Source: Heptranchias perlo (taxonomy: Eukaryota). From it: a stretch of DNA of 64,000 nt. Each line of letters opens with the position of its first letter. Within the stretch, counting starts at the first letter, position 1. Shown piece after piece: positions 48,007 to 63,004 of this stretch. Made by a program: the position numbers and the translations under genes. The stretch covers positions 4,960,001 to 5,024,000 of the forward strand of contig NC_090363.1 of assembly GCF_035084215.1 (NCBI RefSeq), in the 5' to 3' direction. The notes under the pieces are model-generated. The model was not told the origin of the DNA. It saw nothing but the letters and a program-made list of their open reading frames with translations, and did not search any database.

Positions 48007-50498
48007 GGGACATTGTGGAGACACTATACCAATAAGTAGACTCTCAATTAAAAAAAAAAGTAACTGGAATTTCAAAGATTAATTGTTGTAGACATTCATC
48101 GGTAAACTTATAGATTGAGTTATACAAACCACTGGGTTTTATTTATCATTTAATTGTTCATTTAACGTCCACAGTAGCTGGAGATATCTACATCATGAAC
48201 TCCACACTACAATCTCCAAGGGCTAATATACAATGAACAAAAGGGTTTGACTAGTTAGAATCCAGTAAATTCATAGATAGCAAGACAGAATAAAATAGGC
48301 CACCAATGACATCTGTGGTTTAATGGCTAGGAATATCTGCACTGTCATCAGTGATCTAGCACCTTCATCAGGGATGGAAGGATTCTGTCACAAATCAAGC
48401 CATAAAATCTACATATATTTTTGTTATCTATTCATGAGATGCAGTTAATCACTTTAATTCTGCATACTGTCGGCCTAGATTTACCTGGAGTGAGATAATT
48501 TACATCCCTGATGTGGGGCAGGGTAGGCCATGGGAGGGGGGTTTAAAACAGGTAACTATAAACTATCAACTTCGATTGTTCTGATTATTAGATCGTTTTT
48601 AGATCTTTAGTAGAACCTCACAGGTCTAAAAGCATCAAACGCCAATCCTGGTGGCTGGGCACAAAAGCCGGCCAATTGCCGTTGTATTTTTTTTGTTTCG
48701 CTGATTGGCATTCTGGAAGGGCTACCTTGATCTCAAATAACCTGGTCCTGCCAATGAGGGAGGTCCTATAGGGCATCTCTGGAGATTACAGCTCCTTCCC
48801 TGGTTAGTGAGATAGTTTTGCCTGTTTTCTACCAGTTCTTCAGGGTTCAACACGATAGAGACAAATACTTTAAGACTCACTGGCTATTAGAAATAACTTT
48901 AGAGATAAGTTTGATGTTTCAGATGTCGTCCAGGACAGGCATTACTAAAAGAGTTAGTGAAGTATTGCGTCTTTTGCTAATTTTGTGTATCCAAGGGGGC
49001 ATAAGCTAAACCTTCTGTAGACAAATGAAATCTGCTGTATGCCACTGCTAATGTTTACTTTTAATAAACCTGAATTGTAGTTTATAACCAAAGTCACATG
49101 GTCCAATGGTGTTTATTCTTCAACTACCCAAAGATTAGGAGAACATGAGAGGGCTCTTGTCAATTTAGTGAGTGGCAAAAGAACCAGAGGCGAGATGAGG
49201 GGAAAAAAATAGGCAGCGAGTTGTTATGATCTGGAATGCGCTGCCTGAAAGGGTGGCGGAAGCAGATTCAATAGTAACTTTCAAAAGGAAATTGGATAAA
49301 TAGTTGAAGGGGAAAATTTTTCTGGGCAATGGGGAAAGAGCAGGGGAATATGACTAAATTGGCTAACTCTTTCAAAAAGCCAGCACAGTCACGATGGGTC
49401 GAACGGCCTCCTTCTGTGCTGTATCATTTTATGATTCTATGAAGCTCAGCAATAAGGGTTTCTCATTGACTCTATAGACAATCTCCACCACCAGATATTG
49501 TACATATAAAGACACACTCTGGTTCTTCAAATTCAAAAGGGAATTGGATATATACTTGAAAAGGAAGTCAAACGCAGGGCTGTTGGGAAAGAGCAGGAGC
49601 AGTGTGTCTAAATTAGATAGCTCTTTCAAAGAGCCTGCACAGGCACGATGGGCCGAACGGCCTCCTTACGTGCTGTACGATGATAGAGAGGGGTGACGAA
49701 CTTTATTGGCAACGGTTAGAATTTATAAATACAAGGTCTCCTTATCACGATAGGACAGAAATATGATACACTGAATGTCTATTTAAACTTGTGTTCATTT
49801 TATAGATGAAGTGAGGGTGCGGACCTGGCTGAGGATAGCTGAAGGCGGGCTCCGATTCTCCAGCCCACTAAATCCGAGCTGATATTGACACACGTCCATT
49901 TTCAAAGCTAAAAGCGACTTATTAAAATGCACCAGAAATAAATTCGTACAAATTCATACTTCAGGGGAAAAAATGCTCGGTGGCATTTGTAAGTAATGTT
50001 ATGATGCAGGAGTAGCTCTTTCGTTAGTAATGGGACATGACTTGGATGATAATAGTGATATGATCATTATTGCTGATAATATATTAAACGATTTATCCGC
50101 TTCTGCAACAGCAGCTGTTAAAGTGTAGCCAATGATTCTGTAAGAATCGCTTGATGTTTCTTGGGACAAGGTGCCTTTGTTTTAAAACTACTTCCACAGT
50201 CTTATTAAAAGAAGATAAACAAAATACATAATGAAATAATTTTTTAAAATGAGCATTTAAAAAAAATTAACGAGCTTATAAAGCTTAAATACCCACCGTT
50301 GCAAACACCAGCTAGCAACCTTTTAGAACGCATTAAAATAAAATAAAAAATACTGGAAATGCTCAAGATTCGGGCAGTATCCGAAAGATGTTTCCGGTTC
50401 TGCTGAAGGATCTCATCATAAAAAAACATTGACTCATCTCTCCTTCAGGCATTTAAAAAAAATTCTAATCTTAAATCTCTTTTAAACGACTAGTTTGG

Positions 50499-50535
50499 CT
50501 CTTTGATAAGTTGGTTTGTGGCTCTGAAAAGAGCC
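50499..50535 (-). terminator. Orphan histone-type 3' stem-loop with histone downstream element (HDE)
   Basis: Minus strand AAC-GGCTCTTTTCAGAGCC-ACAAA (stem-loop 50520-50535), then AAAGAG (50499-50504) about 15 nt downstream. No recognisable histone ORF directly upstream. Confidence 0.85.
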
Positions 50536-50570
50536 GTTATTGTATTATATTGTGTTGTAGATATACATGC

Positions 50571-50571
50571 G

Positions 50572-50604
<33 letters not shown>
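50571..50604. repeat. (CA)n(TA)n microsatellite
   Basis: Direct reading. Confidence 0.9.
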
Positions 50605-51045
50605 TATAATATAAAAAACATTCAGGGGTGTGTTTCGCCTCCTGTCAGGTACTATTCTGTTGCTCAGAGCATGGGACATATTTAACTTCTTGGGGATATT
50701 TAAGTCGTGAAGGGACCTTCGATGAGAACCAGAGGGCTCTCCAATTTCTGATTTCAACATTTGACTCAATCTTCAAGTCACACCTGGTCCGCCCAGACTC
50801 CATGTGGTTGAGTTCACATTTGGTAAGATTTCTTGGGGAAATTAGCCGGGGAAATGGCATCAATCACACAGATGCTCTTGAGAATAAGTGAGAAGTTTGG
50901 CATTAAATCAAGTCACATTTTGCCCATTTAAGATTTTAGCTTTTATATCGACCCCCAGGTGAGGAGTCAGGGTCCCACAGTACAACACTTACAATAACTT
51001 ATAAGCCCAAAATAATGTATAGCCCTGGCTTAAGACATTGTGAGT

Positions 51046-60400: not shown

Positions 60401-60747
60401 TCACCGCAGCCTTTTTTCAATTAAACTTAATTAAAACTACGACATATTTGGATAATTTGCACGGCGGACATTAAGATGTGTTGTTGATACAGGTTCCCGA
60501 AAAGCTAGAACTAGGAAGAAAGCGTTCTAGCCTCCGATAGCTGGAAATCAGATTGGCCAGTGACACGGAAAATGGCAAGCGGCTTCACTCCAAACTGTAA
60601 CTAACAAACTGGATCACTTTTTTCAACATTTTAAAAATAAACATACTTCATACGTCTTAATTTCCCTTTTATTAAATCTTTTTTTAACACGTATGGCTGC
60701 TACATTAACGTCTTGTGACTTGTTTTGGCCCCTTTGTTTGAGTCAGT

Positions 60748-60763
60748 GGCTCTAGGAAGAGCC
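60748..60763 (-). terminator. Histone stem-loop with non-consensus loop (UCCU)
   Basis: Minus strand AAC-GGCTCT TCCT AGAGCC-ACTGA; minus-strand AATAAA at 60668-60673. Confidence 0.85.
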
Positions 60764-60787
60764 GTTCTTTCAATTTTCCAAGTCTTT

Positions 60788-61417
60788 CTACTTCGCGCTG
60801 GACGATGGGGTCTTTGCCGATTTTGTTTCAGTTGGGCACCTGGATACCCTCCTCATTCTTGCAGCTTTCCACTTGGCTGCCATTCTGAACACGGTCGGGG
60901 TTCTCCGACCCACGCCCGTTTTCTTCTGCGCTTTCGCTTTCTTTCTGCCCGTCGACGGTCTCCTCGGCATTTTAGGGAGTCTCTTGACCACCACTCGTCG
61001 CCTGGTGGCTTCTTTTCCCGACGCCGTCACCCCCGCTGTGATCTCCAGGTCTTTGCTGAGCTTGACCGAACCGGAGGCGCCGGTGCCCGCCGTGTGTACC
61101 AGCGAGCCTCTGCTTAACAAGCTCTTGATCGCCCGGTTGACCCGCGAGTTGTTCTTCTCCAGGTTGTAGCCGCTGGCCTTCAGCGCCTTCTTCATGGCGG
61201 CCACCGACAAACCGCGGCGCTGCTTGGTGGCCGCCACAGCCTTCATGATCTGCTCGGCCACCGTGCAGCCGAACTTCTTGTGCCGGTAAGGCCTCCTCTT
61301 CTTCTTCACAGCAACCGCAATGTCCACCGCCTCGTCTGGAGGCGGAAGCGGCGGCGGTGGTAGCGCTGGTGCCGCCGGAGCGGGAAGGTCCATCCCGACC
61401 GGCTCAATATCCGCCAT
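60788..61417 (-). CDS. Linker histone H1 variant, 209 aa, Pro-rich/acidic N-tail
   Basis: H1 globular domain [72 protein letters not shown] at 61417. Confidence 0.9.
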
Positions 61418-63004
61418 CAATCCAAACGACGTCTCCCCTCCTCCTCCGCTCCCGTCGGCAGCGACAGCTGCAATGTGGAGGCGGCGCCGGCAAAGTGATA
61501 CTTAAAGCCGCGACGCGGACGCGGTAGACTCAACCCGCCGCCCAGCCGCACGCGGGCGGCCCGGGGCTCCGCCCACTTTGTGCTTTCGCTCCGCTGAAAG
61601 AGGCTTTGGTTCGCGGAAAATCGAGCGCCGGGGAAGCCGCGCATCGCTCACTCCTATCCCACGCAATCCAATTCGTCGCACGGGCAATGCTTTGCATTTG
61701 AAAAACGCGGCGGGGTTATTTTTAACACTCCATAATTGCACCGCCTCCCCCTTAAAAAACCGCCCTGGGTCTGCTTTTTTGCTCTTTCCTGGTTGGAATA
61801 CCGCAACGACCTGATACTTGGGCGGGCATTAAGCCTCGAGGTTGCAGGAGAAGGGTCGTTGTTCATATTCCAGAGGAAGCCCTTGTTTTAACGTGTTAAG
61901 GGACTTGAAAAGATCTTGTTAAGTCTGATCTCAGTAACACAGATAGATTGCGCGGTCAAGGTTGATTTTAATCAGAGGGGTTTGCCACAAGGGGATCAAT
62001 TTTGCGGTTCTCAATACAAGTTCTTCGCATAAACCAGGTTTATAATCAAATTTTACAAGTGGGTGTCCAACAAATTCCACCCTGTCTCAAAAACATAAAT
62101 ATGTTAACATTAGGAGCTAAAGCATTTAAAGGGCAGCTGGATAAGCACATAAGGGAGAAAGGAATAGTGGGATATGCTGATAAGGTAAGATGAAGTAGGG
62201 TGTGAGGAGGCTCGTGTGGAGCATAAGCACTAGCATGGACCAGTTGGGTCGAATGGCCTGTTTCTGTGCTGTGGATTCTATATGTAGCTAGTCATCAGCC
62301 TCGGTGCTTCATCTTCATTTGCTACTTTACGCCTCAATAACTCCTCCACGTCGATAACCTAGACGGTTCAATGATCTTTTTAAGGTAGCAAATTAAAGTG
62401 TTAACCACAAGAATCATTGGGGTTAAAATTCAACTTCGGCGAGGGGGGCACAGAACAGGCGGTAGCGGATTGGCCCCCCGTTATACACCCCACACAAACC
62501 CCGATTCTCCTTTCCAATGGCCCTATGTTGTCTGCAAGAAGCTCAGCTTCTTCTCTTGTGTTAAACAACCCATTTCCTCCTCACCAACTCTTAAATCTTT
62601 ACAAAGCCCTTGTCTGGAATACTGCTCCCATGCTGGGGGTGGGGTGGGGAAGGGGGATCTGATGCCTCTCGTGCTCTTAGACAGGATTCAAGATACTTAT
62701 CGCTGATATATGAACCATTTTCACCTCTAGTCTCCAAACTCAGTCTCTTGGTTGCAACCTTTCTTGTCTCTATACTTTATTGCACTATAAGTCAATGCTT
62801 CTCTCAACTTACTTTTTGATTCTCCCAAGCTGCACATATATCAATCTGCATGGCTCCTCCCCCTTACATCATCAAGATTCAGCGAGCTATCTTCTACTCC
62901 AACCCATTTCCTAGGATATCAAAACTACGAAACTCCTTAATCTTAATCATTTAAAGTGTTTTATTCCTCATGTGAGCTGCAGTGCATTTAATCCTAAGCT
63001 CTTT

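Follow-up and report, generated by a model that had tools for sequence, protein, structure and literature searches.

Whether a small group of divergent histone genes in the shark Heptranchias perlo marks a locus dedicated to germ-line chromatin is the question raised by a 64,000-nucleotide stretch of contig NC_090363.1 (the window; the contig is called C42 below, the window is C42:4960001-5024000, and positions without a prefix are counted within it). A preliminary description of the window had reported three intronless, co-oriented histone-family genes and regarded them as a cluster made only of H2B and H1 variants and as a candidate locus for histone replacement in sperm development. The three genes are found on the same minus strand, with the open reading frames (ORFs) and Pfam families as described: an H2B variant of 135 aa with a longer N-tail and Ser at human position 84 (51093-51500), H1a of 231 aa (53134-53829) and the single-copy H1b of 209 aa (60788-61417). 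The absence of H2A, H3 and H4 from the window also holds. However, the spacer 61418-64000, which runs up to the window end, does not terminate the cluster. What the window contains is the left margin of a low-copy cluster, split in two, whose 28 stem-loop histone genes cover all five types, and the restriction to H2B and H1 is an artefact of the window edge.

The 664 kb around the window were scanned for histone genes and stem-loops. The locus contains 28 open histone genes (15 H1, 5 H2B, 3 H2A, 2 H3 and 3 H4) and 32 histone stem-loops between C42:5,010,520 and 5,277,074, which belong to the 28 open genes, three broken copies (one H2A, one H4 and one frameshifted H1) and one relic. The nearest gene beyond the window is an H4 at C42:5025623-5025931, 1.6 kb past the end, and 24 further open genes follow, as far as C42:5,277,663; 13 of the H1 genes are outside the window. 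Specifically, block A, which extends to C42:5,063,154, continues after this H4 with H2B, H3, H2A, H2B, H1f, a broken H2A, H1c, H1d, H1e and H1f, and block B (C42:5,197,713-5,277,663) comprises two H2B, two H4, two H2A, one H3 and eight H1 genes. Some 134 kb separate the two blocks, which are partial duplicates in inverted order, with twin copies of the window H2B and H1a at C42:5214826 and C42:5208113, respectively. The 250-kb and 146-kb flanks yielded no histone genes. A stem-loop ORF of 144 aa (C42:5268706-5269137; L079:4706-5137) with an H1-type core promoter was considered as a new protamine-like gene and rejected, because another frame matches the H1 globular domain at 93.6%. Neither the representative library nor Pfam gave a match for it, and Atlas gave one low row only; it is probably a frameshifted H1 pseudogene whose product could be a domain-less basic protein.

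All 28 cluster genes differ from the bulk tandem histones of the genome, which form large arrays on other contigs, and no bulk-type copy is present among them. Relative to a single set of bulk copies, the H3 of the cluster carries Q125H, and the His125 pattern matches four places genome-wide, all on C42. Cluster H4 carries A69S in every copy together with 1-4 further changes, H2A differs at 12-14 positions and has its own tail, and H2B is identical at 90-100 of 124 positions (96/124 for the window H2B). The window H1 proteins reach about 30-42% with their best matches outside the locus, so the divergence previously noted for all three window proteins is borne out. The ratio of nonsynonymous to synonymous substitution rates (dN/dS) between paralogs is 0-0.11 for seven core pairs and 0-0.89 for ten H1 pairs, with very few differing sites in some pairs; the core variants are under purifying selection. 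Assignment of the cluster H2A to H2A.X or TH2A was rejected: although the fold is closest to H2AX, the C-terminal SQ(E/D)Y motif is absent, and TH2A ranked below H2AX. A second group, H3(Q125H)-H2B(Ser84)-H3(Q125H), lies 1.5 Mb away at C42:6,749,000-6,756,000 (L136-L137); its H2B belongs to its own shark-ray clade in the H2B tree, and the available sawfish table lists an H3-H2B-H3 counterpart at 6.16 Mb (PMC10751288).

The chromosomal setting of the cluster was read from exon scans and Pfam matches, which give the order FHA+BRCT, HCR, FHA, POU, TRIM, four Hsp70 genes, block A, a GST-C/tRNA-synthetase gene, Suppressor_APC, block B, TRAF and NT-C2. Pfam was run on 27 candidate neighbour ORFs, seven of which have no match, and LSM2 (smx5)-like exons at 33041 and 38950 (33041-39060) lie between the Hsp70 genes and the histones, likewise in sawfish. 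From domains, exon sequences and named gene tables for the MHC (major histocompatibility complex), we take neighbours of the cluster to be MDC1, CCHCR1, TCF19, POU5, VARS1, SAPCD and ABHD16A; ABHD16A gave no Pfam match, and its name comes from exon sequences and the named tables. The neighbour domains match named MHC genes in the available sawfish and lungfish tables (PMC10751288 supplement). A search for the MHC class I family matched unplaced contigs only, and one for class II beta gave no match and was uninformative; the MHC position therefore rests on the neighbours and the sawfish table. As judged from these, the two histone blocks flank VARS1 between Hsp70/LSM2 and ABHD16A, in MHC class III.

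In line with this placement, the synteny comparison across chondrichthyans proposed earlier reveals nearly the same gene order in sawfish. In the table part at hand (PMC10751288, part 17), the LSM2 side reads Hsp70 x3, smx5, H2B(-), H1(-), H4(-), H2B(+), H3(+), H2A(-), H2B(-), H1(-), followed by vars1, sapcd, more histones, FAM102A and abhd16a. The layout agrees down to the strands of eight block A histone rows, with a single H1 where Heptranchias has H1a and H1b. The corresponding catshark part (part 7) lists unnamed short genes in both intervals. The reedfish table, as far as available, has no histones near vars1/abhd16a, its histones being located on the same MHC chromosome at a distance of about 280 Mb (part 41), and the lungfish table in the supplement has no histone-sized gene (<2 kb) between VARS1 and LSM2. 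In the version of this elasmobranch MHC paper at hand, histone rows stand in the tables and the word "histone" occurs 0 times in the main text.

Among the core variants, H2B resembles a germ-line histone, the mammalian testis variant TH2B (TSH2B). Four of the five cluster H2B have lost Asn84 (Ser motif), and all 21 orthologs of the window H2B in sharks and rays lack it as well (20 Thr, 1 Ser). The Ser/Thr84 pattern matches ten places genome-wide: five on C42 (the four cluster H2B and one at C42:6.75 Mb), three H2B-like copies elsewhere (one broken, two bulk-type) and two others treated as chance, a control pattern having given 11. The Asn84 pattern matches 394 places, two on C42 and 392 off it. 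The window H2B equals human TSH2B at 7/8 positions listed in the available part of PMC3976059, which describes Ser85 as the sole TSH2B change altering the structure, through removal of a water-bridged contact with H4 Arg78, and cites, for TSH2B, nucleosomes of similar stability and an octamer that is unstable. Of these changes, the one at position 84 alone is both missing from nearly all bulk copies and consistent in sharks. A TH2B signature of Thr67, Ser75, Ser84 and Ser90 was rejected as proof of orthology, as bulk shark H2B contains three of the four residues and the orthologs are variable at two.

The orthologs of the window H2B, whose best full-length matches in sharks and rays are 85-90% identical, form one clade of 23 rows (two from the Heptranchias genome; support 100/96). 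A first H2B tree (62 rows, one truncated row dropped) placed its two primate TH2B rows in one group (98/87) with every MHC-chromosome variant and two chimaera H2B. In a 36-row tree with more tetrapod canonical H2B, this grouping was lost (43/68), and the alternative of TH2B joining mammalian canonical H2B, with only two TH2B rows, was not rejected by the approximately unbiased test (p-AU 0.27). H2B.1 has been dated to the eutherian ancestor in the accessible text of PMC8857922. The likeness to TH2B is thus most likely convergent rather than orthologous, which is the simpler reading of the sequences. The phylogeny proposed in the preliminary description, once run, gives this one H2B clade and six cluster H1 subtypes; it does not fix the placement of TH2B. 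Two Callorhinchus H2B (P0092, P0164) also lack Asn84 and fall among the variants, hinting that the variant set may be older than the elasmobranch-chimaera split. In each of Heterodontus and Carcharodon, the orthologs of H1a and H2B lie on a single contig and their accession numbers follow one another.

The 15 cluster H1 fall into six subtypes, all of which are shifted from Lys to Arg. Arg/(Arg+Lys) is 0.32-0.66 in 15/15 cluster H1, compared with 0.08-0.11 in 7/7 bulk H1 sampled and 0.25 and 0.31 in two annotated teleost protamine-like (PL) proteins. H1a has the highest value, 0.66 (0.62-0.72 in three orthologs checked), and had been described as Arg-rich and protamine-like. Its total basicity does not bear out the name: Arg+Lys is 26.8% in H1a (Arg 18%, Lys 9%), 23.4% in H1b and 21-24% in six orthologs, against 29-33% in bulk H1 and 32-34% in the teleost PLs. 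PL-I proteins contain 35-50% Arg+Lys, and both H1a and H1b stay below somatic H1, which a PL-I protein should at least equal. PL proteins are defined only broadly in the available text of PMC11607694. Additionally, the H1a orthologs end in an acidic C-terminal tip. H1a matches Pfam Linker_histone with 61 bits, and its model predicts an intact winged helix at residues 36-103 (predicted local distance difference test, pLDDT, about 90) between disordered tails, with a root-mean-square deviation of 1.1-1.4 Å to H1.4-type structures. Its globular domain shares 55-59% identity with the best-matching human H1 structures, including H1.4; an H5/H1.0 type was rejected for it, with identities of 28-35% to H5, H1.0 and H1.10 and 19% to H1.8. 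By composition, then, H1a is not protamine-like and would at most work like an Arg-rich testis H1.

In a quick-method tree of the H1 globular domain (78 columns), five of the six cluster subtypes have relatives in other elasmobranchs, four with Shimodaira-Hasegawa-like approximate likelihood ratio test (SH-aLRT) values of 95-100 and the fifth with 87, and no cluster subtype joins bulk shark H1 or, specifically, the two teleost PLs. Orthologs of H1a came to light in sharks only, those of H1b in sharks and rays, across which the basic N-terminal motif of H1b is nearly invariant. The subtype H1f, also present in sharks and rays, has four genes, L034:8507-9100, L075:5882-6478, L033:4896-5510 and L078:7254-7859 (C42:5062507, 5229882, 5048896 and 5261254, respectively). 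It falls below the Pfam Linker_histone cut-off, its first helix being nearly invariant and its helix 3 and wing eroded. AlphaFold2 predicts one helix only (predicted TM-score, pTM, 0.13), whereas H1a was folded at similar alignment depth, making H1f a candidate H1 without a globular fold. An AATAAA lies 14 nt beyond the stem-loop in three H1f genes (C42:5063139, 5230517 and 5261215), suggesting dual 3' processing.

This is a variant histone cluster embedded in MHC class III and conserved between sharks and rays; we propose, by analogy and at a probability of roughly 45%, that it supplies a germ-line set that works like TH2B and H1t. A germ-line role is plausible because H2B has lost Asn84 as TH2B has and because the Lys-to-Arg shift extends to 15/15 H1. 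Of the germ-line replacement locus put forward in the preliminary description, the conserved divergent variants apart from the bulk clusters hold up; the complete five-type set departs from it. In the proposed mechanism, the cluster genes would be switched on in germ cells; an H2B without Asn84 would lose the water-bridged contact to H4 Arg78 and weaken the octamer, and H4 A69S and H3 Q125H would modulate this same particle. In spermatocytes or spermatids, Lys-rich bulk H1 would give way to the Arg-rich H1 subtypes, before transition proteins and protamines, and the set would loosen germ-cell chromatin ahead of protamine arrival.

Several observations weigh against this proposal. The other TH2B-like residues, Thr67 and Ser75, are not constant in the orthologs and are also present in bulk copies. 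H3 and H4 differ from bulk by only 1-5 residues, and the CpG-rich H1a and H1b promoters (observed/expected 1.29) fit broad expression too. Four libraries from one individual contain H1a, and their contigs were compared over the H1 genes and the germ-line marker TDRD6; X5 (share 0.07) did not enter this comparison, and stretches without contigs between the H1 genes were given no weight. At least three of the four are RNA, as they share the same spliced end at the GT donor of the TDRD6 exon. The H1a contigs have a 6-nt gap and in three runs diverge from the window at 53068, the exact end of the duplication, and therefore come from the twin rather than the window copy. Contigs over H1b and the H1a twin are present in 4/4 libraries. 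The TDRD6 exon is a single 5.4-kb contig in X2 alone and fragments in the others; neither the H1a twin nor H1b gains in this TDRD6-rich library, and H1b depth is highest in X1, the library poorest in TDRD6. These libraries mildly lean against strict testis restriction, mainly for H1b; contig depth measures expression poorly, the records give no tissue, sex or library type, and TDRD6 leaks into all four. Stem-loop mRNAs are lost under poly(A) selection. No description of this cluster or of shark testis histone expression was found in the literature searched, to the extent its texts were available, and older shark testis biochemistry may bear on it.

The same libraries fit another explanation, in which the genes are old "jumbled" minor subtypes of broad or somatic use that escaped the concerted evolution of the bulk arrays and have no special germ-line role, comparable to H1.1-H1.5 of mammalian HIST1. 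The coverage of H1b and the H1a twin, the complete five-type set with normal stem-loops, and an H1a globular domain that is as close to human H1.4 as given above and, by eye, retains more of the bony-vertebrate signature than bulk shark H1 does, all speak for it. Yet low-level read-through is expected in deep libraries, as seen for TDRD6, and Asn84 loss together with H1 tails that are Arg-shifted and evolve fast (dN/dS up to 0.89) is typical of germ-line variants; we hold this explanation to be possible but rather unlikely. The variants could also lack a special function and simply reflect GC-biased substitution together with relaxed selection on a chromosome that is small and GC-rich. GC content at third codon positions (GC3) is 0.68-0.89 in cluster H1 against 0.66-0.73 in bulk, and three broken copies and one relic lie in the cluster. 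However, H1b and one H1f have bulk-like GC3 (0.72 and 0.68) and still Arg ratios of 0.45 and 0.33, GC3 and Arg correlate weakly (rho 0.34, p 0.22), and purifying selection on the core variants and subtype motifs kept across sharks and rays argue against drift, which we find scarcely credible.

Deep orthology would derive this MHC-linked cluster and HIST1 (6p22; TH2B, H1t) from one germ-line, MHC-linked locus of the jawed-vertebrate ancestor. The 98/87 grouping of the first tree, the common loss of Asn84, the similar N-tail starts and, in the available table, histones on the reedfish MHC chromosome point that way. The collapse of that grouping to 43/68 with the alternative at p-AU 0.27, the eutherian date of H2B.1 (PMC8857922, as available), and reedfish and lungfish tables whose listed parts have, respectively, histones only some 280 Mb from vars1/abhd16a and no gene <2 kb between VARS1 and LSM2 make it improbable. 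For H1a as a true PL sperm nuclear basic protein of mature sperm, an H1-to-protamine intermediate, one can cite its Arg ratio and that of its orthologs, the predicted winged helix flanked by disordered tails, a layout also seen in PL-I, and teleost "protamine-like" proteins among profile matches. Its Arg+Lys of 27% (orthologs 21-24%), below both bulk H1 and the teleost PLs, the acidic tip of the orthologs and the lack of a tree grouping with teleost PLs leave this earlier idea unsupported; sharks use true protamines, which also counts against it, and we rate it as very unlikely. A still broader scenario, an MHC germ-line nucleosome kit inherited from the jawed-vertebrate ancestor, of common origin with TH2B and H1t, in which the series from H1a/H1b to H1f would capture steps from H1 to protamine, appears doubtful to much the same degree as deep orthology.

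Within the window, the preliminary description had assigned one stem-loop to each gene plus an orphan. All four palindromes, on the minus strand, are real, against 0.63 expected by chance (at least four in 0/100 shuffles). An intronless ORF with a 16-nt stem-loop is present for H2B (51046-51061; Rfam Histone3 34.5 bits) and H1a (53090-53105; 38.3 bits). The H1b stem-loop (60748-60763) is degenerate, the third U of its loop being changed to C to give UCCU, which accounts for its score of 20.2 bits, below gathering; the third loop U is important for SLBP binding. Because this stem-loop is broken and an AATAAA lies 74 nt beyond it (60668-60673, minus strand), H1b is likely made partly as polyadenylated mRNA, and H1b contigs reach 50-80 nt beyond the stem-loop towards the AATAAA; H1b may also be active in somatic cells. 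The orphan stem-loop (50520-50535; loop UUUC, 33.9 bits) aligns, with its surroundings, to the 3' parts of two H1d genes (C42:5058938 and 5217446). The H1d-type relic (50495-50672, minus strand) retains the last ~8 codons, the stop, a 3' untranslated region with a (CA)n insertion, the stem-loop and the downstream element, and tblastn found no H1 coding remnant upstream. As it aligns with H1d 3' ends and has no coding body, the orphan is, on this alignment, a deletion relic, the tail of a deleted H1d-type gene. A 71-aa ORF ahead of it was rejected as a gene, since it passes through the (CA)n repeat.

The H2B promoter (51583-51640, minus strand) contains a TATA box, CCAAT and an octamer-like element with one mismatch, likewise found in several bulk H2B. 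Bulk and variant shark H1 promoters have GTCCG directly before a TATA-like box and no proximal CCAAT (e.g. 53920-53950; bulk loci L118-L135); the exact AAACACA box is present in 6/7 bulk H1 and not in H1a, its twin or H1b. Elsewhere in the window, four intronless tandem Hsp70 genes (3776-5698, 11105-13027, 16000-18000 and 24522-26444), the first two nearly identical, form an MHC-linked group, amid which LINE-type (long interspersed nuclear element) reverse transcriptase ORFs were recognised by eye at 7622-8656, 21665-22900 and 30201-32417. A CALHM-like two-exon gene (Pfam Ca_hom_mod; 45076-48006) lies just before the cluster; the available sawfish table has no CALHM row at the matching site and a CALHM6-like gene at 6.48 Mb instead (PMC10751288).

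These findings add a histone block to the elasmobranch MHC map. The TH2B-type germ-line H2B is thought to be a placental-mammal invention, and the shark-ray loss of Asn84, kept alongside variant H3, H4, H2A and six H1 subtypes, would be either an independent replicate of it or evidence of a far older origin. Testis zones of catsharks and skates separate spermatogenic stages. A somatic role would still leave an ancient cluster of minor subtypes, though one of modest interest.

Compared with TH2B/TSH2B (H2B.1, H2BC1), the window H2B is likewise an intronless stem-loop gene with Ser/Thr instead of Asn84, it has Ile42, Ser61, Thr68, Ser76, Ser91 and Ser125 as TSH2B does, and its twin was auto-named "H2B type 1-A-like" by NCBI. 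Distinct from TH2B, it has no divergent H2A partner, its upstream neighbour being the co-oriented H1a; its N-tail is longer, it carries the extra changes I59V, M60I, A79V and T94S (shark numbering), Thr68 and Ser76 are not fixed in shark orthologs, and H2B.1 is dated to eutherians. H1a shares a predicted winged helix and Arg-enriched disordered tails with the PL sperm nuclear basic proteins, and differs from them in lower total basicity, the acidic tip of its orthologs and the lack of a clade with teleost PLs. The tail of H5 is Arg-enriched; the replacement linker histones H5/H1.0 thus resemble the cluster H1 in this tail and in the possible polyadenylation of H1b, whereas the cluster H1 genes have stem-loops and lie in a cluster, and the H1a globular domain is of H1.4 type. 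The mammalian HIST1 cluster with H1t, which lies in the extended MHC class I region, is similarly a jumbled five-type cluster with several diverged H1 subtypes and MHC-chromosome linkage. Unlike HIST1, the shark cluster is situated in class III (LSM2-VARS1-ABHD16A), where the available reedfish and lungfish tables show no histones. It has no bulk-type copy among its 28 genes, and its H1 genes form six subtypes, one of them predicted to be without a globular fold.

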